64,000 nucleotides of DNA, taken from Myxococcales bacterium (GTDB lineage Bacteria; Myxococcota_A; Polyangia; Polyangiales; Polyangiaceae). The notes below the pieces were generated by a model. That model was not told the DNA's origin. It was given only the letters and a program-made list of their open reading frames with translations, and ran no database searches. Shown here piece by piece: positions 6,062 through 59,163 of the stretch. The translations under genes and the position numbers were made by a program. The stretch lies in assembly GCA_009692485.1 (NCBI GenBank), contig SHZB01000001.1, positions 48,960 to 112,959 on the forward strand. Direction: 5' to 3'. Positions within the stretch are counted from its first letter, which is position 1, and the number at the start of each line of letters is the position of its first letter.

Positions 6062-6137
6062 CGGCCGCGTGCCGGTCGTCGCGGCGCGAGTTGCGCTACC
6101 CCAGAAACGCGATGGACGTGGCCTTGCGCGGGCAGTT

Positions 6138-6223
6138 GGTCCTCGATTCGCGCCGAGCGAAAAAGTAGAACCACGCGCATGGTCCTCGATTTGCGCGGCG
6201 CGAAAAAGTAGAACCACGCGCAT
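6138..6223. repeat. 2 x 43-bp tandem duplication ending on the start codon of the aldo/keto reductase gene
   Basis: Units 6138-6180 and 6181-6223 (GGTCCTCGAT(T)TCGCGC..GCGAAAAAGTAGAACCACGCGCAT). Each unit ends in ..CGCGCATG. The first ATG (6179) opens a 10-codon uORF, MVLDLRGAKK-TAG (6179-6211). Confidence 0.9.
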
Positions 6224-7067
6224 GACGGCTGCGAGCACACAGGAACACGGGCCGCTCCCGACCATGATGTACGGGACCGCGTGGAAAGAGGAGCGCACGG
6301 CGGGGCTCGTCCTTTTGGCGCTGCGCGAAGGCTTCGACGCCATCGACACCGCCAATCAGCGCAAGCACTACTTCGAGGCTGGAGTCGGGAGTGCGGTCGC
6401 GGAATACCTCGCGGAGACGGGTCGGACGCGCGGCGAGCTATTTCTCCAGAGCAAATTTACGTATGCGCGCGGACAAGGTCAGTGCCTGCCCTACGATCCG
6501 CGGGCGGAGGTCGGGGTGCAGGTTGCGCAGTCGTTCGCGAGCTCGCTCGAGCATCTCGGGACGAGCTACCTCGACTCGTTCGTGCTGCACGGGCCGGCGA
6601 CTGGCTACGGGCTCACCGACGATGACGTGGCCGTGTGGCGTGCGATGGAGGAGCTGCAGCGTGCGGGAAAGTGCCGTTTTCTCGGCGTCAGCAACGTGTC
6701 GCTCGAGCAGCTCAGGGCGCTTCTGCGCGCCTCCGAAGTGAAGCCCAGGTTCGTGCAGAATCGTTGTTTTGCGCGCAGCGGGTGGGACCGCGAGGTGCGC
6801 GCGATATGCCGAGCGCACGAGGTCGTGTACCAGGGTTTCTCGCTGCTCACGGCGAACCAGCGGGAGCTCGACAACGCGGAGATAAGGGCGCTCGCGGCAC
6901 GCCTCGGAGGCACCGTCGCGCAGCTGGTATTTCGCTTCGCCCAAGCGGTTGGGATGCTCCCGCTCACCGGCACTTCGCAGGCCGCGCACATGCGTGAAGA
7001 CCTCGCCGCGAGCGGGCTCGAGATTTCGCCGGCGGACCTGCGCATCATCGAGAGGCTCGCCGGCTGA
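6222..7067 (+). CDS. aldo/keto reductase
   Basis: 281 aa from ATG 6222. AKR-like motifs YGTAWKEE, IDTANQ, LDSFVLHGP and FSLLTANQ. The longer track ORF from 6069 runs through the repeat region. Confidence 0.8.
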   Translation: MTAASTQEHGPLPTMMYGTAWKEERTAGLVLLALREGFDAIDTANQRKHYFEAGVGSAVAEYLAETGRTRGELFLQSKFTYARGQGQCLPYDPRAEVGVQVAQSFASSLEHLGTSYLDSFVLHGPATGYGLTDDDVAVWRAMEELQRAGKCRFLGVSNVSLEQLRALLRASEVKPRFVQNRCFARSGWDREVRAICRAHEVVYQGFSLLTANQRELDNAEIRALAARLGGTVAQLVFRFAQAVGMLPLTGTSQAAHMREDLAASGLEISPADLRIIERLAG

Positions 7068-7120
7068 TCGGCACTTCGCCGCTCCTCCGGGGCCGCTCCT
7101 CCGGGGTTGTCGTCCGGCGC

Positions 7121-7198
7121 GGGCACGCTAACGTGACCTCTTTCCACCGCGTGCTCGACGGGCACGCTAACGTGACCTCTATCCACCGCGTGCTCGAC
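7121..7198. repeat. 2 x 39-bp tandem repeat upstream of the MopE-motif gene
   Basis: GGGCACGCTAACGTGACCTCT(T/A)TCCACCGCGTGCTCGAC at 7121-7159 and 7160-7198. It is preceded by a 14/15-bp x2 repeat (CCGCTCCTCCGGGG) at 7078-7106. Confidence 0.9.
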
Positions 7199-41881: not shown

Positions 41882-41986
41882 GAATCCTCCTGGACTAACG
41901 GCCCCGTGGCTTCCGTCATGAGGCGCAGCGGCCTCGTGATTGCCATGGAGCGAGGGATCGAAAAAGTCCGTCAACCCTGTTGCTCT

Positions 41987-42025
41987 GCGCGTTCGCTCAG
42001 CGCGTTCGCTCAGCGCGTTCGCTCA
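41987..42025. repeat. 3 x 13-bp tandem repeat starting on the pth stop codon
   Basis: GCGCGTTCGCTCA x3. The minus-strand TGA is at 42023-42025 (the real stop), 42010-42012 and 41997-41999. Confidence 0.9.
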
Positions 42026-42661
42026 ACCAGTCGGCGGGGCTTCGGGGGGGCGGCTCTTTTTCGGTCGAGTGTTGCTTGTTTTCATTGCGGCTTCGGGGCC
42101 GCGGGCGGCGATGTCTAGCACACTCTTCATCGCAGATTGCAAGCAATGATCGAGCTCGGCGCACTCTCCTGCGCTGAAGTCCGAGAGCACCCAATCGGCG
42201 ACGTCCCCGCGGAAATCTGCGGCGGGCCGTCCGATGCCAATCCGCACGCGGAGGAAGTCTCCGGTGCCGAGGCGCTGCATGATCGACCGCAAACCGTTGT
42301 GCCCCGCGTGCCCGCCGCCAAGCTTGAGCCGCACCTCGCCGAACGGCACATCGAGCTCGTCGTGCACCACGATGATCGAGCCGGGCTCGATCTTGTGAAA
42401 CACCGCGCACGGCTGCACTGCGTCACCCGACAGGTTCATGTACGTCTGCGGCTTGAACAGCCACGCCTCTTCTTTGCCGAGCGACGCGCGTGCAAGCTCA
42501 CCGGAAAATTTGCCGCGAAACGCCTCCGCGCGGGCGCCCCGGGCGAGCTCGTCCACCACCATGAAACCGACGTTGTGCCGGTTGGCCGCGTACTTCTTCC
42601 CGGGGTTGCCGAGGCCGACGACGAGCAGCATGAGCGTGAAGCCGAGGGGCCTTGCCGTCAC
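42023..42661 (-). CDS. pth: peptidyl-tRNA hydrolase
   Basis: LLVVGLGNPGKKYAANRHNVGFMVVDELA and GHNGLRSI. An alternative start lies at 42631. Confidence 0.92.
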   Translation of the reverse strand: MTARPLGFTLMLLVVGLGNPGKKYAANRHNVGFMVVDELARGARAEAFRGKFSGELARASLGKEEAWLFKPQTYMNLSGDAVQPCAVFHKIEPGSIIVVHDELDVPFGEVRLKLGGGHAGHNGLRSIMQRLGTGDFLRVRIGIGRPAADFRGDVADWVLSDFSAGECAELDHCLQSAMKSVLDIAARGPEAAMKTSNTRPKKSRPPEAPPTG

Positions 42662-50436: not shown

Positions 50437-51465
50437 TCAGGGCTTCGGGTGCGCGAGGAAGAAGTCGAACAAGGCAGCCTTGAACTCACCCTTGAAGCCC
50501 GGCAAATGCTGGCTTCCGACGAGCTTCCACTGCTCGACGAGGCTCGCGCCCTCGCAGCCGATGTCCCAGCGCGTCACCTTCGTCTCGCTGCCCACGATGA
50601 CCGTGAGATCTTTGTCCGCGGGCGTCTCGTCGGCCGTGAGCGAGCAGCCGTTCAGCATGGCCCAGGTCTCCGAAGTCTCGAGCGCGCCCGGGTACTCCCC
50701 GCCGAAGAGCTTGCCGCCTCCATAGAGGATCGTCGGATCGAGCGAGCCATGGACGACGAGGGCAGTGACCGGCTCGCTGGGCTTGCATTGCGTCTCGTCT
50801 TTGTACGTCGCGCCCGCGAGCGAGCCGAAGGCGGCGATGGCGTCGGCATGTTCACACGCCATGCGATGGGACATGAAGCCGCCGTTCGAGTGGCCGAAGA
50901 AATAGACGCGCTTGGCATCGACCGTGTACGCCTGCTTGATCTCGTCGATGACCTGACGCAGGTAGCCGGAGTCGTCCACGTCACTGCCGTTGAAGTTGCA
51001 GCATGCGTCGGTGGCATTCCAGAATCGCTGTCCGCGCTTGTCGAAGGTGCCATCGGGATACGCGTACAAAAAGCCGTGTTTGTCGGCCATTTCGGTGAAG
51101 CCGAGGTAAATCTCCTGCACCTTGCCGCTGGCCGTGTAGCCGTGCAGCAAGATCAACAGCGGCGCGGGCTCGGCTGGATCGTAGCCGGGCGGAACGTGCA
51201 CCGTGACCGGCCGGTCGCCGCCGATCACGCCGTCGAAGCCGCTGCCCGAGCTCGGATTCGAGGCACCCGCGCCGCCAGTGCCCGTGCCGTTCGCATTCGT
51301 GCCGTTCGTGCCCGAGCTTGCCCCTTGCCCAGCGCTGCCGCCGCCCGCGCCGCCCGCACTCGTGTGCGTCTCGAACCCGGTCGTCGTGTCCGTCCCGCAG
51401 CCGAGAATGCCGGCCGCCAGAAGTGCGGCCGCGAGTGTCTGAAATGCCAGTCTCGGTAATGCCAT
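50437..51465 (-). CDS. secreted esterase, PHB-depolymerase/LpqC-like alpha/beta hydrolase (lipoprotein)
   Basis: MALPRLAFQTLAAALLAAGILGCG lipobox. PLLILLHGYTASG and VYFFGHSNGGFMSHRMA (GxSxG). The track ORF extends in frame to ATG 51609 through 15-bp repeats. Confidence 0.7.
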   Translation of the reverse strand: MALPRLAFQTLAAALLAAGILGCGTDTTTGFETHTSAGGAGGGSAGQGASSGTNGTNANGTGTGGAGASNPSSGSGFDGVIGGDRPVTVHVPPGYDPAEPAPLLILLHGYTASGKVQEIYLGFTEMADKHGFLYAYPDGTFDKRGQRFWNATDACCNFNGSDVDDSGYLRQVIDEIKQAYTVDAKRVYFFGHSNGGFMSHRMACEHADAIAAFGSLAGATYKDETQCKPSEPVTALVVHGSLDPTILYGGGKLFGGEYPGALETSETWAMLNGCSLTADETPADKDLTVIVGSETKVTRWDIGCEGASLVEQWKLVGSQHLPGFKGEFKAALFDFFLAHPKP

Positions 51466-51589
51466 TGTTGGAATTGCCCTAATAGGTAATGCCCTAATCG
51501 GGAATGCCATAGTCGGGAATGCCATAGTCGGGAATGCCATAGTCGGGAATGCCATTGGCGGTAATCCGAGCCTCGGTATTGCCACCTTC
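51455..51589. repeat. about 9 x 15-bp tandem repeat (GG(G/T)AATGCCATAGTC) covering the start-codon neighbourhood of the esterase gene
   Basis: Units every 15 bp from 51455 to 51589. Three are perfect copies (51500-51544). On the minus strand in frame they read PTMAF repeats with ATGs at protein positions 19, 24, 29, 34 and 49 of the long ORF. Confidence 0.9.
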
Positions 51590-51617: not shown

Positions 51618-52901
51618 CTACATATCAGACTTCGCGGACGGCGCGGCTCGGCGTTCGGCGGCGCGGGCGTGGGCTTCGAGCCCTTCGAGGCGGGCCAGAA
51701 TAGCGGCGTCGCGTGCGAGTTCGCGATCATTGCCAGTACCGTCGAGACGCAAGAAGGTGCGGACACGAAGAAAGGTCATCACCGAGAGTCCGCCGGTGTA
51801 GCGCGCCGTTCCGCCCGTGGGCAGCACGTGATTGGGACCGGCACCGTAGTCTCCGAAGACCTCCGCGGAGCCCGGGCCGATGAAGATGGCGCCGTAATGA
51901 GAGAGCCGCTTCGAGCGCTCGTGTGCGTCGGCGGTCATGACCTCGAGGTGCTCGGGCGCGAGCTTGTCCGACGCGGCGATGCCTTCATCGGGCGTGCACA
52001 CCAACGCGAAGCCGTTTTCGAGCGCGCGGGCCGCGAGTTCCCGAGTCGAGAGCCCTTCGAGCTGAGTCGCGAGCGCACGATTGACCGCTTCGGCATGCGC
52101 CCGCGTGGTCGTGATCACGATCGGCAAGGCGTCGCTCGCATGCTCGGCTTGCGCCAGCAGATCGGCGGCGATCAGCTCGGGATCAGCGGCCTCGTCCGCG
52201 AGCACGACCAGCTCGCTTGGACCGGCGAGCATATCGATCGCGACGCGGCCATGGACGAGCTTCTTGGCGGCGGTGACCCAGCGATTTCCGGGGCCGACGA
52301 TGATGTCGACGGCCGGGATCGAGGCCGTGCCGTAAGCCAGCGCGGAGATGGCGTGGGCACCACCTGCGGCGAGCAAACTATCGGCGCCCGCGAGCGCGGC
52401 GGCGGCCATCGTGACTTGTGTAGGCCGGGGGCTCGCGACCCACACCGACCGAACGCCGGCGACGCGCGCGGTGATCGCGGTCATGAGCACGCTCGAGGGC
52501 AGGGGATAGCCGCCGCCGGGCGCATAACATCCCGCGCGCTCGACCGGGGCTATCGTGTGGCCCGCGCTGCCACCCGCGACGGCGAGCTCGAGTGGGGCGA
52601 GCGACGCGCGTTGGGCCTCGGCAAATCGCGTGATTCGCGCTGCTGTACGCTCGAGCACGCCGCGCGCATCGGAGCCGAGTGACGCGAGCGCATAGATGAG
52701 CTGTGCTCGCGGAATGACGAGCGCATCGGTGTCGCCGAGGCCGTCGTGCTGGCATGCGTAGCGACGAAGCGCGGCATCACCCCCGGCGTGAACGTCGTTC
52801 ACGATTTGGCTAGCAGCCGCGAGCGTGTCGGTGTCGATGGCCGCGCGCCGCTCGACGAATCGCTCGAGCTCCGCAAGCGCGATGAGCTTCAAGCCACTCA
52901 C
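51618..52901 (-). CDS. hisD: histidinol dehydrogenase
   Basis: GCYAPGGGYPLPSSVLM, IIVGPGNRWVTAAKK, LLAQAEHASDA and GDYGAGPNHVLPTGGTARY. The GTG start at 52901 overlaps an upstream TGA. The rest of the 725-aa track ORF is an upstream shadow. Confidence 0.92.
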   Translation of the reverse strand: MSGLKLIALAELERFVERRAAIDTDTLAAASQIVNDVHAGGDAALRRYACQHDGLGDTDALVIPRAQLIYALASLGSDARGVLERTAARITRFAEAQRASLAPLELAVAGGSAGHTIAPVERAGCYAPGGGYPLPSSVLMTAITARVAGVRSVWVASPRPTQVTMAAAALAGADSLLAAGGAHAISALAYGTASIPAVDIIVGPGNRWVTAAKKLVHGRVAIDMLAGPSELVVLADEAADPELIAADLLAQAEHASDALPIVITTTRAHAEAVNRALATQLEGLSTRELAARALENGFALVCTPDEGIAASDKLAPEHLEVMTADAHERSKRLSHYGAIFIGPGSAEVFGDYGAGPNHVLPTGGTARYTGGLSVMTFLRVRTFLRLDGTGNDRELARDAAILARLEGLEAHARAAERRAAPSAKSDM

Positions 52902-52972
52902 TTCGCGTCTCCCTCGCGCCGCTCGACGAATCGCTCGAGCTTCGCGATCGCGATGAGCTTCAAGCTGCTCAC
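52827..52972 (-). repeat. 71-bp tandem duplication of the hisIE-stop/hisD-start junction, creating a 24-codon chimeric mini-ORF
   Basis: TCACTTCGCGTC occurs at 52898 and 52969. CGCGCCGCTCGACGAATCGCTCGAGCT.CGC...CGCGATGAGCTTCAAGC is present twice. The mini-ORF 52898-52972 reads VSSLKLIAIAKLERFVERREGDAK. Confidence 0.9.
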
Positions 52973-54222
52973 TTCGCGTCCCCGGGCCGGCGCGTGATCT
53001 TGCGTGCGCGTGCCTCGAGGATCTGCTCGACCTCGGTGAGCGAGACGCCGGCCTTCGCCATCCGGACGAGCGTGAAATAGAGGACATCGGCCGCCTCGTG
53101 CGCGACCTCGTCGTGACTCGCCGCAAGACCAAGCTCGCCCGCCTCTTCGATGAGCTTCTTGCGGAGCAGCTCGGGCTCGTGGAGGAGCCGCGCGGTGTAC
53201 GAGCCCGCTGGTGCGTCGGTGGCGCGGCCGCGCAGCACCTCAGCGAGCGCGGGCATGCCGCCGAGCGCACCCCAACAGCTCGTTGTGCCGGTGTGGCAAA
53301 AGCCCGGGCCTGCCTGCACGACGGTGAAGCGCAGCGCGTCTCTGTCGCAGTCGAGGTCCACGCGCACGAGCCGTTGTGTGGCGCCGCTCGATGCGCCCTT
53401 GTGCCAGAGGCCGCGTTGGCGCGAATGGTAGATTCCGGTGCGGGTCGCGATCGCAGCACGCAGACTCTCGCGACTCGACCAGCATTGTCCGAGCGCGCGC
53501 CCGTGCTCATCGACGACGACCGTCGCAAAGAGGCCGTCCGCGCGATCGCTGACGAGCGGTGCCGCGAACGCATCGCCGAGCTCCATGTGGCCTTGGTAGA
53601 GCGCCATGCCGACTTGCGCGTCGATGCCGAGTTTGTCGAGCGCAGCGACTTCCGCGACCGTGGTGACGCCTCCGGCGATCGTGAGCGAAGCGTCTCCGGC
53701 GGCGTCGCGCAGCTCTCTTGCGCGCTCGAGATCGGTGCCTCCGAGCCGGCCCTCGCGCTCGACGAAGGTGACGAGAAACCCGCCGACGACATCACGCAAT
53801 TCGCGCATCCGCTCGGGCACGCTCGCGCCGGTCTTGGTGCGCCAGCCCTCGACGACGACCTCTCCGTCGAGCGCGTCGAGCGCCGCGATCAGCCGTGATT
53901 TCGGCAATTGACGCAGCAGCTCCGGAGTTGCGGCGGTGCCGAGGATGAGCTTCTCCGCGCCGGCATCGAGCGCTTCGACAGCACGCGCGACGCTGCGGAT
54001 CCCGCCTCCGACGCGGCAGCGTGCGACCCGGCACACTCGCTCGACCAGCGCGCGGTTGTCACCCGTGCCGAGCGCCGCATCGAGATCGATCAACGCCAGC
54101 TCGCCGATGACCCCGAAGCGCTCCGCGATCGGCAGCGGGCAGCCGGCCTCGAGCGCCAAGTCGCGCCCCCCGACGAGCTGCACGGTCTGGCCGCCCATCA
54201 AATCGATTGAAGGAATAATCAC
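52969..54222 (-). CDS. hisA-hisIE: trifunctional fusion HisA (ProFAR isomerase) - HisI (PR-AMP cyclohydrolase) - HisE (PR-ATP diphosphatase)
   Basis: N-terminal IIPSIDLMGGQTVQLVGG...GGGIRS...TIAGGV (HisA barrel). Middle YHSRQRGLWHKGASSGATQRLVRVDLDCDRDALRFTV..CHTG (HisI). C-terminal SYTARLL..KKLIEEAGE...EAADVLYF (HisE). The GTG start overlaps an upstream TGA. Confidence 0.85.
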   Translation of the reverse strand: MIIPSIDLMGGQTVQLVGGRDLALEAGCPLPIAERFGVIGELALIDLDAALGTGDNRALVERVCRVARCRVGGGIRSVARAVEALDAGAEKLILGTAATPELLRQLPKSRLIAALDALDGEVVVEGWRTKTGASVPERMRELRDVVGGFLVTFVEREGRLGGTDLERARELRDAAGDASLTIAGGVTTVAEVAALDKLGIDAQVGMALYQGHMELGDAFAAPLVSDRADGLFATVVVDEHGRALGQCWSSRESLRAAIATRTGIYHSRQRGLWHKGASSGATQRLVRVDLDCDRDALRFTVVQAGPGFCHTGTTSCWGALGGMPALAEVLRGRATDAPAGSYTARLLHEPELLRKKLIEEAGELGLAASHDEVAHEAADVLYFTLVRMAKAGVSLTEVEQILEARARKITRRPGDAK

Positions 54223-54288
54223 ATTCGCACCGGGCTCTGTTCCGGCGTCGAGTACGGCGCCGCAAGGATCACATTCGCACCGGGATTT
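54219..54288 (-). repeat. 50-bp-spaced duplication of the hisF-stop/hisA-start junction (CCCGGTGCGAATGTGAT x2), creating a 17-codon mini-ORF
   Basis: TCACATTCGCACCGGG occurs at 54219 and 54269. The mini-ORF 54219-54272 reads VILAAPYSTPEQSPVRM. Confidence 0.9.
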
Positions 54289-55027
54289 CCGCGGCGGCGA
54301 GCGCGCGCTTCAGATCGCCGACGGTGACTTCGCCGTCGTGAAGGATCGATGCCGCGAGCACTGCGCTTGCCCCCGCGCGCACGGCCTCGAGCATGTGCTG
54401 TGCGTGTGCGGCGCCGCCCGACGCGACCACCGGGATGCGTACCGCGCTCGTGACAGCCCCGATCAACTCGATGTCGTAACCGGCGCGCGTGCCGTCGCGA
54501 TCCCAGCTCGTCAGCACGATCTCTCCGGCGCCGCGTGACGCCGCCTCTCGTGCCCACGCGACCGCGCAGCGCGAGGTTCGCTCTTTGCCAGAGCGCACGA
54601 CCAGCTCCCAGCCCGCGCCATCTTGGCGGCGCGCGGCATCGAGCGCGAGCACCGTGCATTGACTGCCGAAGGTCCTGGCGAGTCGGTCGAGCAGCGACGG
54701 CTCGAGCGCCGCTGCCGTGTTGCTCGCGACCTTGTCGGCCCCCGCCTCGAGCAGAGCGCGCGCATCTTCGATGGTGCGCACGCCGCCGCCCACCGTGAGC
54801 GGAATTCCGAGGACCGCGCGCACCCGACGCACCGTCTCGGTGGCATTGCCGCGCCCTTCCGGCGTCGCCGAGACATCGAGCATCACGAGTTCGTCGGCAC
54901 CTTGCGCCTCGTACGCGAGGGCACGCTCGGTCGGATCACCCGCATCGCGCATCCCGCTGAAGCGCACGCCCTTCACGACGCGACCGGCGTCGATGTCGAG
55001 GCACGGGACGACGCGAATCGTCAGCAC
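54269..55027 (-). CDS. hisF: imidazole glycerol phosphate synthase cyclase subunit
   Basis: VLTIRVVPCLDIDAGRVVKGVRF, GADELVMLD, IPLTVGGGVRT and IPVVASGGA. The GTG at 55027 overlaps the hisH stop (GTGCTGA). Confidence 0.93.
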   Translation of the reverse strand: MLTIRVVPCLDIDAGRVVKGVRFSGMRDAGDPTERALAYEAQGADELVMLDVSATPEGRGNATETVRRVRAVLGIPLTVGGGVRTIEDARALLEAGADKVASNTAAALEPSLLDRLARTFGSQCTVLALDAARRQDGAGWELVVRSGKERTSRCAVAWAREAASRGAGEIVLTSWDRDGTRAGYDIELIGAVTSAVRIPVVASGGAAHAQHMLEAVRAGASAVLAASILHDGEVTVGDLKRALAAAEIPVRM

Positions 55028-55632
55028 GCGCGCACCTTCGCGAGCCAGCGCCCGAGCAGCGCGTGTCCCCATGCGCCGCTCAGCTCGGGATGAAATTGAC
55101 ACGCGAGCAACGCCCCCTTTTCGAGCGCGGCGACGAAGGGACTTCCGTGCACGGCGAGCGCCCCCGAGTAGCCAGCGGGGAGCGCATCGAGCCGATACGA
55201 GTTCGCGAAATAGGCATGCCCGCTCGCGAGCAGCGTCGAGTCCAGGGCGGGCTCGACCAGGTTCCAGCCGAGCTGCGGCACGACCAGCCCCGCGCGATCT
55301 TCAAATCGTCGCACCGCCGCGTCGATCACGCCGAGGCCGGAAATTCCGGGACTTTCTTCGCTTTCGCGACACAAGAGCTGAAGGCCGAGACACACGCACA
55401 ACAGGGCTCGGCCCTCACGCGCGCGCTTCGTGAGCGCCACGGCGAGCCCCGTCGCCTCGAGCCGCGCCATGCCCGCACCGAACGCGCCGACCCCCGGCAA
55501 CACCACGCGCTCGGCGGCGGCGACGACGCTCGCATCGGTCGACAGCCGGGGCGCGGCACCGACGCGAACGAGGGCGGCGCACACCGAGGCGAGGTTCGCC
55601 GTGCCGGTATCGACGACGATGACCTCGCTCAC
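55021..55632 (-). CDS. hisH: imidazole glycerol phosphate synthase glutamine amidotransferase subunit
   Basis: VIVVDTGTANLASV, LPGVGAFG, LCVCLGLQLL and FHPELS. The GTG at 55632 overlaps the stop of the last mini-ORF. Confidence 0.9.
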   Translation of the reverse strand: MSEVIVVDTGTANLASVCAALVRVGAAPRLSTDASVVAAAERVVLPGVGAFGAGMARLEATGLAVALTKRAREGRALLCVCLGLQLLCRESEESPGISGLGVIDAAVRRFEDRAGLVVPQLGWNLVEPALDSTLLASGHAYFANSYRLDALPAGYSGALAVHGSPFVAALEKGALLACQFHPELSGAWGHALLGRWLAKVRAC

Positions 55633-55775
55633 GAGAGCGCCTCGCCGCTCGGAGCGAACGCGCATGTCTTCATCGCAAGCACCGCGTCATCGAAGGCACC
55701 GCGTCATTGCAAGCACCGCGTCATCGCAAGCACCGCGTCATCGAAAGCACCGCGTCATCGAGAGCACCGCGTCAC
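55629..55775 (-). repeat. six 17-bp tandem units plus one 45-nt ORF forming seven chained mini-ORFs between hisB and hisH
   Basis: Plus-strand CATCG(C/A)A(A/G)GCACCGCGT units. The minus-strand stops at 55772, 55755, 55738, 55721, 55704, 55687, 55670 and 55629 each overlap the next GTG/ATG by 4 nt. Confidence 0.95.
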
Positions 55776-56371
55776 AAGACGCCCTTCGTGCTGGCGATGT
55801 CCGTGCCGGTGATCGCCACGGCTTGCCGCAGCGCGACTGCCAACGCTTTGAACGCGGCCTCGGCCCGGTGATGATCGTGCTCGCCCTTGAGGACCTCGAC
55901 GTGCAGCGCCGAGCGCGACGCCATCGCGAGCGACTGCATGACGTGGGTCACACACTCGCACGAGAGGTTGCCGAGCTTCTCGCGACGCAGCCCGAGATTG
56001 ATCGCCGGCCACGGGCGCCCCGACAGATCGATCACCGCGCGGGCCAGCGCCTCGTCGAGCGGCGCATACCCATGACCGAAGCGCGCGATCCCGACCCGCT
56101 CGCCCAGCGCTTGATCGAGCGCCTTTCCGAGCGCGATCCCGCAGTCTTCGCTCGTGTGGTGATCGTCCACCTCGAGATCCCCCTGGCAGCTCAGCTCGAG
56201 ATCGAAGCGCGCGTGTTTGACGAGGGTCGTGAGCATGTGATCGAGAAACCCAATCCCGGTCGCGATGCGGCTCACGCCGGTGCCGTCGAGGTTCAGCGAC
56301 AAGGCCACGCTCGTCTCGTTGGTCTTGCGCGCGATCGTGGCCTGTCGTGGCGGGGTGGCGATGGCGTTCAT
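55772..56371 (-). CDS. hisB: imidazoleglycerol-phosphate dehydratase (monofunctional)
   Basis: ARKTNETSVALSLNLDG, GIGFLDHML, DDHHTSEDCGIALG and GEHDHHRAEAAFKA. ATG 56371 overlaps the mini-ORF stop as ATGA. The upstream TTG at 56392 is less likely. Confidence 0.93.
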   Translation of the reverse strand: MNAIATPPRQATIARKTNETSVALSLNLDGTGVSRIATGIGFLDHMLTTLVKHARFDLELSCQGDLEVDDHHTSEDCGIALGKALDQALGERVGIARFGHGYAPLDEALARAVIDLSGRPWPAINLGLRREKLGNLSCECVTHVMQSLAMASRSALHVEVLKGEHDHHRAEAAFKALAVALRQAVAITGTDIASTKGVL

Positions 56372-56430
56372 GATTCGTCGATGGTGCTCCAAAAACTGAA
56401 GTCGAGCGCTCGGTGTGCGATGGCGTTCAT
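56368..56430 (-). repeat. 59-bp-spaced duplication of the hisC-stop/hisB-start junction (ATGAACGCCATCGC x2), giving a 20-codon mini-ORF
   Basis: The mini-ORF MNAIAHRALDFSFWSTIDES starts on the ATGA overlapping the hisC-HAD stop (56427-29). It ends on the ATGA overlapping the hisB start (56368-71). Confidence 0.9.
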
Positions 56431-58133
56431 AGCCTCGTCGAGCCCGCTCCGCGAAGGGAAGTCAGCCGCTCTAGCTCATCGAGCGTGGACAAGAGTCGTC
56501 CCGCGCCGGCCGCGACGAGTCCATCGCCGTTGTAGCCGAGCGGCACGACCCCGGCCGCGCGGGCTGCGAGCACGTCATCGCGGGTGTCGCCCACCAGCCA
56601 CGCAGAGCTCACGTTGAGCAGGGCGAGCGCGCGCAGCACCGGCTCGGGGCTTGGCTTCAGCGGCGCGTCCTCCATGCACACCAGCGTCTTGAACAAGGGC
56701 GCGAGCTCGAAGCGCGCGAGGAAGCGTTCGGCGTCGGCGCGCGGTCGGCCGGTGACGATGCCAAGCGGCAGACGGGCGGCGAGGCGCTCGAGCAATTCAC
56801 GCGCACACAAGAGCGTCTCTTGTTCGTGAAGTCCCGCAATTCCCTGCGTTTCGTCGCCTTGGTAGAGCAACTCGAAGCGCGCCTTCACGTCCGCGAACGC
56901 CGCTGTGACCCCGTGCTCAAGGAGCAGCGCGTGGGTCAGGTGCCAGTCGTTGTTCGCGTCGCCCGCGGCCTTTTTTCGCGCCACGTCTTCGTGTGTCACG
57001 ACTGCGCCGAAGCTCGCTGCGGTCGCAATGATCGCCTCCCGATACGACCCGCGCACGTCGGCGAGCACACCGTCCATATCGAAGAGCAGCGCCTCGGGGG
57101 CGAGCACCGCATCGAGCGCCGCCGAGAGCCGCGCGAAGGCTGGTTCATCCGACGGACACGTGATGCGCGCCATGCCGTCGAGCTTGCCGTGGCCCGGCCA
57201 GATGCGCACGGCGATCCCAAGTCCCGCGAGCCCGTCGCAGAACCACTCGGCGTCCCTCGGCCGCGCGAGGACGAAGTTTGCCTGCGACGGGTGCGCCACG
57301 CATCCGAGCCTCTCGAGTCGCTCGCCGAGCCGCGTTCGCTCGATCTTTACCTGCGCGACATGGCGGCGCATGTGCGGCTCACCCTCGTCGAGCCATCGCA
57401 TCGCGAGCGCCACCGCCGGCGAGCTGACGGCATACGGTTGCCCCGTCCCACGCAGCCAGTCGATGACCAAGGGCTGCGCGATGACGTAGCCGACCCGCAG
57501 TCCGGCGAGGCCCCACGCTTTCGACAGCGTGCGAAACACGAGCGCGTTTTCGTATGCGAGCGCCGTGTGCGTGAGGTCTTCGTCGGCGAACTCGGCATAC
57601 GCGAGATCGACGAACAGCGCCGCATCGCCCGCGGCCTCGGCCACGCGCCGAAGCTCGCCCGCGGTGATCGCCGCGCCGGTAGGATTGTTCGGCGTGACGA
57701 GCGCGACCGCCCCCGTGTTTGCGTTCAGCTCGCGCAGGACCGCATCCACGGGATACGCGCCCGTTGGCCACGGCACCTCGCGCACCGTCGCGCCCGCGAG
57801 CGCCGCGTAGCGCGGAAGCATCTCGAAGGTGGGCACCGGCAACACGAGCTCGCGACCCGGCCACAACAGCGCTTGGCATGCCCGCGCGAGCGCATCGTCG
57901 GCGCCGCAGGTCGTCAAGACGCAGTCGGGCCCGACTCCGAGGCGAGCCGCGAGCTTGCGTTCGAGCGCGCGCGCGTCGGGATAGCGCCGCAACAGCTCTG
58001 CTGACTCCAGCGCAGCGAGCAAGCCCACGGGTGGCAGCGGCCCCTCGTTGCTGTCGAGCTTCAAGTCGATGGGCGCACCGTGCCGCGGCACGTGATAGCT
58101 GCCCTGGCGCGCGATGACGGGATTCGGCTTCAT
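56427..58133 (-). CDS. hisC: histidinol-phosphate aminotransferase fused to a C-terminal HAD-superfamily phosphatase domain
   Basis: The N-terminal ~355 aa have DLKLDSNEGP, NPNNPTG and FRTLSKAWGLAGLRVGY (PLP Lys). The C-terminal ~210 aa have LLFDMDGVLADV, GIVTGRPR and LVGDTRDDVLAARAAG (HAD motifs I-IV). An alternative GTG start at 58154 overlaps the hisG stop. Confidence 0.88.
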   Translation of the reverse strand: MKPNPVIARQGSYHVPRHGAPIDLKLDSNEGPLPPVGLLAALESAELLRRYPDARALERKLAARLGVGPDCVLTTCGADDALARACQALLWPGRELVLPVPTFEMLPRYAALAGATVREVPWPTGAYPVDAVLRELNANTGAVALVTPNNPTGAAITAGELRRVAEAAGDAALFVDLAYAEFADEDLTHTALAYENALVFRTLSKAWGLAGLRVGYVIAQPLVIDWLRGTGQPYAVSSPAVALAMRWLDEGEPHMRRHVAQVKIERTRLGERLERLGCVAHPSQANFVLARPRDAEWFCDGLAGLGIAVRIWPGHGKLDGMARITCPSDEPAFARLSAALDAVLAPEALLFDMDGVLADVRGSYREAIIATAASFGAVVTHEDVARKKAAGDANNDWHLTHALLLEHGVTAAFADVKARFELLYQGDETQGIAGLHEQETLLCARELLERLAARLPLGIVTGRPRADAERFLARFELAPLFKTLVCMEDAPLKPSPEPVLRALALLNVSSAWLVGDTRDDVLAARAAGVVPLGYNGDGLVAAGAGRLLSTLDELERLTSLRGAGSTRL

Positions 58134-58150
58134 GGCAGCGCGCTGCCCGC

Positions 58151-59023
58151 TCACGGCACGATCTGCATCAGGCGCGACACCACGATATCGGTGCCGCCGC
58201 GGGCCTTGAGCTCGGGGATGAGCCGCGGGAGCAACTCGCGTGGAACCGCGGCTTTTACGGCAAATGCGTCCGAACCGGCGAGCGGCGACACGGTCGGCTG
58301 GCGCATGCAAGGCAAGGCCGCAATCACGCTCGCGAGCGCGCTCGCCGCCACGTTCACTTCGAGCATGACGCGCTTCCTTGCGTCGAGCACCGACCGCAAG
58401 ACCAGCACCAGCTCTTCCAGCGCGGCGCGTTTGTGCGGCACCTCGAGCGCCCGGCGACTGGCATAGAGGCGCGTGGAAGAACGCAGCAGCTCATCGATGA
58501 TCGCCAGCCCGTTCTGCGCCAGCGTCGCGCCCGTGGCGGTGTTGTCGACGATGCAGTCGGCGTCCTCCGGCGGAAACACCTCGGTCGCGCCATACGAGCG
58601 CACGAAGGTCGCATCGAGCCCGCGCCGCGCGATCCATCCGCGCGCGAGCCGTTCGTACTCGGAGGCGACGACGACCCGGCGGGTCGGCAGCGCGCCATCG
58701 ACGAGCAGCTCTTCGGGTGCTGCCGCCACGATCCGCACCGGATCGAGCTCGGTGTCGAGCAGCTCCACGACGTCGGCCTCCAGCTCTTCTACCCAGTCGG
58801 CCCCGCCAAACCCGACATCGCGCGTGCCGATATGCAGCATCTCGATGATGTTCTGCGGCTTCAGCACCTTGGTGACCGTGTCCGGCAGCGACACCACCGG
58901 TCGATAGCCGCGCTCCGCGAGCCGCACGCCGATCCCCGCGTCCTCGAGCAGCGTGACGACGCCGCGTTGCATATGCCCCTTCGGCAGGGCGAGCTTGAGA
59001 GTGGGATCGAATGAACTAGGCAT
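58151..59023 (-). CDS. hisG: ATP phosphoribosyltransferase (long form)
   Basis: LKLALPKGHMQ, DVGFGGADWV and a C-terminal regulatory domain. ATG at 59023. Confidence 0.9.
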   Translation of the reverse strand: MPSSFDPTLKLALPKGHMQRGVVTLLEDAGIGVRLAERGYRPVVSLPDTVTKVLKPQNIIEMLHIGTRDVGFGGADWVEELEADVVELLDTELDPVRIVAAAPEELLVDGALPTRRVVVASEYERLARGWIARRGLDATFVRSYGATEVFPPEDADCIVDNTATGATLAQNGLAIIDELLRSSTRLYASRRALEVPHKRAALEELVLVLRSVLDARKRVMLEVNVAASALASVIAALPCMRQPTVSPLAGSDAFAVKAAVPRELLPRLIPELKARGGTDIVVSRLMQIVP

Positions 59024-59163
59024 GAACGCGGGGACCCTAATCGCGCGATCTGCCCGAATCGAGGACCAATTGAACCGCGTGATCACGTGTCGCAGAATCA
59101 CGGTGCCGTGCGCCGGGCAGGGGAGGCAGTCGTGCTTGCCTGGCGTGCTACCGTTCGGCACCT

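Follow-up and report, generated by a model that had tools for sequence, protein, structure and literature searches.

Small overlapping open reading frames (ORFs) within mycobacterial interspersed repetitive units (MIRUs) are said to have been originally reported by Supply et al. (1997). MIRU units lie between the cistrons of operons, often in tandem and in variable copy number, and carry an ORF that is coupled, at a -4 spacing, to the gene that follows (PMC12548453). At senX3-regX3, the unit lengths are 77 and 53 bp (PMC4213456). A comparable arrangement is found in a seven-ORF histidine (his) operon located at positions 59023-51618 on the minus strand of a 64-kb stretch of DNA (the window) from a Myxococcota metagenome-assembled genome (MAG; contig SHZB01000001.1), where short relay ORFs (mini-ORFs) are inserted between the genes. 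The MIRU is the closest known analogue of these his relays, as the inserts lie between co-oriented cistrons, the unit ORFs overlap their neighbours at -4, and tandem arrays occur, with 6.2 copies of a 17-nucleotide (nt) unit in the window and variable copies in the assemblies of a relative, for which collapse is not fully excluded. Furthermore, both MIRU lengths leave a remainder of two when divided by three (2 mod 3), as do the 17, 41, 50, 59, 65, and 71 nt observed here. However, MIRUs form a dispersed family with a consensus, presumably mobile and restricted to mycobacteria, whereas each his insert is a local copy of its own junction, with no sequence in common between junctions in the 64 kb of this Myxococcota MAG that were searched. 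MIRUs reportedly also show promoter activity, whereas neither a promoter-like site of the sigma-70 type nor a terminator-like site was found on the minus (coding) strand within the his operon.

Termination-reinitiation coupling as described by Huber et al. (2019, 2023) takes place at overlaps of 4 nt or 1 nt, and the his relays amount to a chain of such ATGA or GTGA overlaps. Yet, the known cases join two real genes directly, whereas up to seven presumably non-functional mini-cistrons lie in between here. In ribosome-delivering upstream ORFs (uORFs) and the synthetic bicistronic design, the stop of a short ORF overlaps a gene start, and the sole role of that ORF is ribosome delivery (PMC12548453). 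While these ORFs are found at the 5' end of the transcript with a Shine-Dalgarno (SD) sequence of their own, the his mini-ORFs are found between cistrons, fed by the upstream overlap, and born by duplication. No description of locally derived junction-duplication relays was found in the literature searched. What is new here is MIRU-like relay repeats that were born locally, in Myxococcota; the evidence for selection is still thin.

The operon has a G+C content of ~68% and reads hisG, hisC-HAD, hisB, hisH, hisF, hisA-I-E, and hisD on the minus strand, with Pfam supporting the identity of all seven ORFs (Table 1). The genes are joined by stop/start overlaps, and every link of the chain is ATGA or GTGA, except the GTGCTGA at hisH/hisF. 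The initial annotation had described such overlaps across the whole operon, with relay mini-ORFs at four of its six junctions, and each detail was borne out base by base. At hisG/hisC, the hisG stop TGA (58153-58151) is overlapped by GTG 58154 (GTGA), which is in frame with ATG 58133. The true hisC start is probably GTG 58154, with ATG 58133 as an in-frame alternative, since a start overlaps the hisG stop in 51 relatives and is in frame and open with hisC in 45 of these, where one third would be expected. A 21-nt in-frame duplication considered at this junction (TGCCGTGA versus TGCCATGA) was set aside as too short to tell from chance. At hisC/hisB, a mini-ORF opens at ATG 56430 on the hisC-HAD stop (TGA 56429-56427), and its own TGA overlaps the hisB ATG at 56371. 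A further relay follows the hisB stop (55774-55772), where a 17-nt array forms six successive 6-codon mini-ORFs in rotating frames, with one ATGA per unit, encoding in order VTRCSR, MTRCFR, MTRCLR, MTRCLQ, MTRCLR, and MTRCLR. A 14-codon mini-ORF then ends with a TGA overlapping the hisH GTG at 55632, giving eight overlaps between hisB and hisH. There is no insert at hisH/hisF, where the hisF GTG lies inside a 7-nt overlap with the hisH stop, while single mini-ORFs of 17 and 24 codons bridge hisF/hisA and hisA-IE/hisD, respectively.

Each of the four inserts is a direct or tandem repeat spanning its own junction, with periods of 59, 17 (six units), 50, and 71 nt in operon order. Tandem Repeats Finder (TRF) reports the 17-nt array with 6.2 copies, 90% matches, and 0% indels, and the 71-nt repeat with 1.9 copies and 92% matches. 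At hisF/hisA, exact 17-nt copies at 54268-54284 and 54218-54234 are spaced 50 nt apart, and at hisC/hisB, exact 14-nt copies at 56417-56430 and 56358-56371 are spaced 59 nt apart. In addition, 27 of 38 interior positions of the 59-nt insert match the final ~40 nt of hisC when aligned (p = 0.018 versus shuffles), which identifies this insert as a tandem duplication of greater age that has since diverged, and not as foreign DNA. The encoded peptides are accordingly chimeras of the first codons of the downstream gene and the last codons of the upstream gene. For example, the 24-codon peptide consists of VSSLKLIAIAKLERFVERR, derived from the first 19 codons of HisD (VSGLKLIALAELERFVERR in HisD itself), followed by EGDAK and a stop, of which GDAK and the stop match the HisIE C-terminus. 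When each insert was compared by blastn with the 64-kb window and 160 related loci, only itself and the adjacent copy were recovered, and no sequence was common to different junctions. Thus, the four his inserts are duplications of ancestral overlap junctions. Because a 4-nt-overlap junction was duplicated in each case, the start on the upstream stop and the stop on the downstream start are inherited automatically, and only the period modulo three is free to vary.

Comparison with ~160 related his operons or loci, with the same gene order in Myxococcota/Polyangia-type MAGs, shows that, whichever junction type is considered, the genes most often meet in a direct stop/start overlap. At hisF/hisA, where the HisA N-terminus is unambiguous, a 4-nt overlap is present in 119 of 138 loci and a 7-nt overlap in another eight, and the 7-nt overlap is the commonest form at hisH/hisF (68/131). 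Plain overlap is the ancestral state of the expanded junctions. Relays are found at roughly 2-3% of junctions in this set, including other short ones of 6 (L002, hisB/hisH), 7 (L010), 3 (L081), and 15 (L160) codons. The single mini-ORF at hisB/hisH of L002 is 17 nt long (MTDWAR, then stop) and matches the 17-nt unit of the window at 6 of 13 interior positions, a resemblance that could reflect shared ancestry or convergence alike.

Relays occupy 4/6 his junctions compared to 1/27 of the other same-strand junctions in the window (Fisher p = 0.0017), and the single non-his relay is weak, as it depends on a TTG start and comes without a repeat. The argument that so many relays in one operon are not independent accidents is thus upheld. 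The appeal to a mechanism or to selection in the initial annotation holds in that a common mechanism plus a selective filter best account for the pattern, yet the origin of the inserts as junction duplications had been missed. The shuffle test suggested there was judged uninformative, as it keeps the insert length and the boundary contexts; instead, random-length inserts were simulated between real boundary contexts. Because the inserts arise by duplication, the proper null concerns the period, and the periods of 17, 41 (the final step before hisH), 50, 59, and 71 nt are all 2 mod 3. The simulated relay rate was 25-27% when both contexts were NTGA and ≤1.6% otherwise, so that four to six events all yielding relays correspond to ~0.26^4 to 0.26^6 (p ~0.005-0.001). 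The bias is specific to the his junctions and not a general property of repeats, as the periods of 15 other non-coding tandem repeats in the window are 0 mod 3 in six, 1 mod 3 in seven, and 2 mod 3 in two cases. Furthermore, frame-agnostic scans of ~2 Mb of related DNA revealed no junction-spanning duplication with a period of 0 or 1 mod 3, although only two lineages show robust junction duplications at all. Overall, the evidence for selection from the frame bias is suggestive rather than overwhelming.

We consider it probable that slippage duplications arise frequently in this lineage and have passed through a filter that keeps ribosome termination on the following start codon. An ancestral operon packed with 4-nt (ATGA/GTGA) and 7-nt overlaps would have resided in a lineage unusually prone to short tandem duplication, and in such a compact, essential operon, duplications would be tolerated only at junctions, where both genes stay intact, or at in-frame positions. 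After a junction duplication of any length L, the upstream gene would end in the first copy and the downstream gene would start in the last, while the start left in the first copy would open a small ORF running through the first codons of the downstream gene and then the last codons of the upstream gene. Only if L is 2 mod 3 would this mini-ORF enter the upstream frame and end on the copied TGA that overlaps the real start. A length of 0 mod 3 would instead lead to an N-terminal extension, and with a length of 1 mod 3, ribosomes would cross the real start in the wrong frame. In the 2 mod 3 case, a ribosome that completes the upstream gene would reinitiate on the mini-ORF, terminate at the next start, and reinitiate again, passing the coupling on stepwise at any copy number. 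Hence, the mini-ORFs are predicted to be translated, although their peptides presumably have no function of their own, and the frame bias may reflect purifying selection for coupling or against harmful alternatives. It has been shown that termination-reinitiation coupling is abolished by an untranslated spacer of ~20 nt and that short stretches from the 3' part of the upstream ORF are enough for it (PMC10666635). As coupling is lost at spacers of ~20 nt, an untranslated insert would be costly. The same frame filter would result if long untranslated RNA (Rho polarity) or out-of-frame translation into the following gene were avoided, and by sequence these would be inseparable from coupling.

The initiation signals are consistent with a need for coupling. 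Pairing of SD-like sequences with the anti-SD at 57 called gene starts has a median of -2.9 kcal/mol, about the same as the -2.5 kcal/mol at random positions. For most genes, initiation in this organism thus appears to be SD-independent, a result to which imprecise start calls may contribute. Within the his operon, SD-like pairing in the 17-nt units is at background level, and the strongest signal precedes hisD (-9.0 kcal/mol). Since SD-like signals are at background, the internal cistrons plausibly rely on coupling. At hisC/hisB, an SD-like GAGG within hisC precedes the mini-ORF start but was lost from the copy preceding hisB, while the first 14 nt of the mini-ORF are still identical to hisB; this pattern fits initiation at the mini-ORF and a subsequent hand-over to hisB. 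The RNA of the 17-nt array is less structured than shuffled sequences (z = +2.97), which would favour reinitiation, and no notable RNA structure was found in the other inserts (z from -0.6 to +0.5 versus shuffles).

The closest relative (L001/L082, with further assemblies L162-L166) shares ~80% identity in HisA-IE and carries an expansion of its own at hisF/hisA. Here, a 65-nt unit is repeated three times, and with 65 being 2 mod 3, two 22-codon ORFs result (MIIPAIDRMGGLAAAAELPVRT, then stop), which combine the HisA N-terminus with the HisF C-terminus. The 65-nt repeat and the 50-nt insert of the window are independent, as their unit boundaries differ. At hisC/hisB, the two genes of the relative are separated by a 254-nt spacer, in which an 18-nt repeat occurs in 8.7 copies (L082 2876-3029, corresponding to L162 2962-3115, and shorter in L164). 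This repeat is located within a 66-codon ORF, which opens from a TGATG at the hisC stop; the encoded peptide is (PD)TSPA-rich. Depending on the assembly or sample, two or three copies of the 65-nt unit are found, and the 18-nt array is shorter by 105 nt in one assembly, so that the repeats of the relative show VNTR-like (variable-number tandem repeat) behaviour, with assembly collapse not fully excluded for either.

Several observations weigh against a frame filter acting on junction duplications. The bias is based on only four to six independent events, and four other 4-nt overlaps in the window have not been duplicated. Among the relatives, relays make up ~8% of the junctions without a direct overlap, close to the context-averaged chance of ~9%, and selection for relays is therefore not demonstrated beyond this lineage. 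Coupling is also not always preserved, as the spacer ORF at hisC/hisB of the closest relative ends 60 nt short of hisB. Finally, the hisH start is ambiguous, being either GTG 55632 or ATG 55665, the latter in frame with hisH and 4 nt past the stop of the final 6-codon mini-ORF. The HisH N-terminus read from the former, VSEVIVVDTG, agrees with the relatives.

If duplications were harmless in any frame, the run of 2 mod 3 periods would be luck, and the relays would be neutral by-products ahead of genes using their own initiation sites. The density of tandem repeats across the window, the small number of events, the chance-level frequency of relays in relatives, and the presence of some SD-like signal at hisD and hisH all speak for this. 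However, a run of four out of four to six out of six has the low probability given above, junction duplications of the other two period classes were absent from the ~2 Mb scanned, most starts lack an SD, and the old and diverged 59-nt and 50-nt inserts have kept intact frames together with exact cores of 14-17 nt, making a neutral origin unlikely, if by no means far-fetched. The initial annotation had given stoichiometry tuning by stepwise loss at reinitiation as an example of a different role. In this reading, each reinitiation step would shed ribosomes and the number of steps, heritably adjustable through copy number, would set the stoichiometry of the His enzymes. Copy numbers do differ (six units here, and two versus three in the assemblies of the relative), and the pair forming the HisH/HisF heterodimer keeps a direct overlap in most genomes. 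Yet, the proposal found no support, as the inserts are lineage-specific, the two closest genomes differ in the position, length, and sequence of their inserts, and most of the ~160 related operons have no relay. Nor is it obvious why the enzymes of a linear pathway should need a six-step drop ahead of hisH and none ahead of its partner hisF, and such tuning is regarded as improbable. Since the inserts are lineage-specific and copy number varies across the assemblies of the relative, VNTR-type drift under a frame filter describes them better than a tuned design.

A mobile, dispersed element targeting stop/start overlaps would account for the MIRU-like geometry, with an ORF coupled at -4, units of 2 mod 3, and tandem arrays in operons. 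This origin was rejected, as the four inserts match only their own flanks and nothing else in the window or the 160 loci, leaving it very improbable. Spurious tandem copies could also be expected from a metagenome-assembled source, as short-read assemblers handle repeats poorly, and an independent Logan assembly of the window's own organism (L161, SRR8561391) ends within the 17-nt array. Nevertheless, this same assembly is identical to window positions 56800-55730, a stretch that includes the 59-nt insert as well as the beginning of the 17-nt array, which makes an artefact unlikely. Furthermore, the copies have diverged (the 71-nt pair is 90% identical, and the 50-nt and 59-nt inserts are identical in their cores only), and an analogous repeat is present in several assemblies of another organism, so that an artefact can be given hardly any weight. 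The idea that the mini-ORFs encode functional small peptides or a His-sensing leader, for which they are open and well placed for translation, is just as hard to credit. Their peptides are pieced together from the ends of adjacent genes and lack conservation in relatives. As to features of a his attenuation leader, the mini-ORFs contain no His codon runs (zero or one His codon each), there is no attenuator hairpin or minus-strand terminator, and their folding is unremarkable or weaker than that of shuffles.

Short tandem duplication in this lineage is also apparent outside the his operon. In its 64 kb, the window contains 27 non-redundant tandem repeats (period ≥7). This density of 4.2 per 10 kb is about nine times the median of 0.47 per 10 kb for 93 related loci (each ≥10 kb long). 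As these repeats are dense and are found on other gene ends as well, the lineage seems to duplicate short segments often. Many of the window repeats are intergenic or lie on gene ends. For example, a 43-nt duplication in two copies at 6137-6224 (plus strand) takes in the ATG of the gene at 6222 together with the region upstream of it; the result is an upstream ORF of 10 codons (MVLDLRGAKK, then stop), ending 12 nt before the real ATG. Around the predicted GTG of the gene at 7133, a 39-nt in-frame duplication in two copies (7120-7198, plus strand, 97% identical) would repeat 13 N-terminal residues. A 13-nt array of 3.4 copies (TGAGCGAACGCGC; 41982-42025, minus strand) starts exactly on the stop of the gene located at 42023-42661. 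This array has a period of 1 mod 3, and no relay is formed. Just downstream of hisD, a 15-nt repeat of 6.9 copies (51453-51555, minus strand) encodes MAFPT repeats in the N-terminal signal-peptide region of an esterase-like gene. Finally, the exact 15-mer TTGGTCCTCGATTCG is located at 59055-59069 (minus strand), ~45 nt upstream of the hisG ATG, and again at 6136-6150 (plus strand) and 6179-6193, within the 43-nt duplication upstream of the aldo/keto-reductase-like gene 6222. Both at hisG and at gene 6222, TTGGTC is followed, 24 nt on, by a hexamer containing TAG, and the similar GGTCCAATTCGCG is found in the hisC/hisB spacer of L082. The 15-mer may be a promoter or operator motif.

The features of the operon are listed in Table 1. 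HisB (199 amino acids) is 100% identical to NCBI protein P0001, which is annotated as HisB in a Myxococcales MAG, while look-ups of HisF and HisA-IE for exactly matching proteins gave no hit. As hisB comprises the dehydratase only, the HAD domain fused to HisC is probably the missing histidinol-phosphatase. This fusion is kept in most relatives, while some (L003, L023, L025, and L026) align only to around residue 350. The hisA-hisI-hisE fusion is kept in more than 400 matches from MAGs labelled Myxococcota, Planctomycetota, Alphaproteobacteria, and others.

Table 1 Positions of the his genes, predicted relay mini-ORFs, and repeats in the window.
Feature	Position	Strand	Support
hisG (ATP phosphoribosyltransferase, long form)	58151..59023	-	Pfam HisG and HisG_C
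hisC fused to HAD phosphatase domain	56427..58154	-	Pfam Aminotran_1_2 and HAD_2
20-codon relay mini-ORF, hisC-HAD/hisB (MNAIAHRALDFSFWSTIDES, then stop)	56368..56430	-	ATGA overlap at each end
hisB (imidazoleglycerol-phosphate dehydratase only)	55772..56371	-	Pfam IGPD
17-nt tandem array, ~6.2 units, starting on hisB stop	55670..55775	-	TRF and ORF chain
14-codon mini-ORF (MKTCAFAPSGEALS, then stop), from last array unit (ATGA) to hisH GTG (GTGA)	55629..55673	-	41-nt step
hisH (glutamine amidotransferase subunit)	55021..55632	-	Pfam GATase
hisF	54269..55027	-	Pfam His_biosynth
17-codon relay mini-ORF, hisF/hisA (VILAAPYSTPEQSPVRM, then stop)	54219..54272	-	GTGA overlap at each end
hisA-hisI-hisE triple fusion, single ORF of 417 amino acids	52969..54222	-	Pfam His_biosynth, PRA-CH, and PRA-PH
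71-nt tandem duplication of hisIE stop and hisD start, 2 copies, 90% identical	52841..52982	-	TRF
24-codon mini-ORF, hisA-IE/hisD (VSSLKLIAIAKLERFVERREGDAK, then stop)	52972-52898	-	GTGA overlap at each end
hisD (histidinol dehydrogenase), final operon gene	51618..52901	-	Pfam Histidinol_dh

It could be speculated that 2 mod 3 junction duplications represent a general class of intercistronic VNTRs that are coupling-neutral and evolvable, that such arrays could serve as heritable and reversible dials on downstream translation, and that units born locally in this way may have given rise to dispersed families such as the MIRUs. Any copy number would keep the overlap chain, and arrays would be free to expand and contract, but so broad a generalization is rather doubtful at present. 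What the his operon offers is a natural experiment on coupling, as four junctions of one operon and one in a sister genome have been expanded with the ribosome still set to terminate on the next start. If the frame bias proves true genome-wide, it would provide comparative evidence that strong selection acts on termination-reinitiation in SD-poor bacteria, that coupling limits the structural mutations operons tolerate, and that MIRU-type relay repeats can arise locally at any overlapped junction. When repeat-rich, high-GC genomes are annotated, intercistronic gaps of 50-140 nt may in fact be relays that are translated throughout instead of untranslated spacers.

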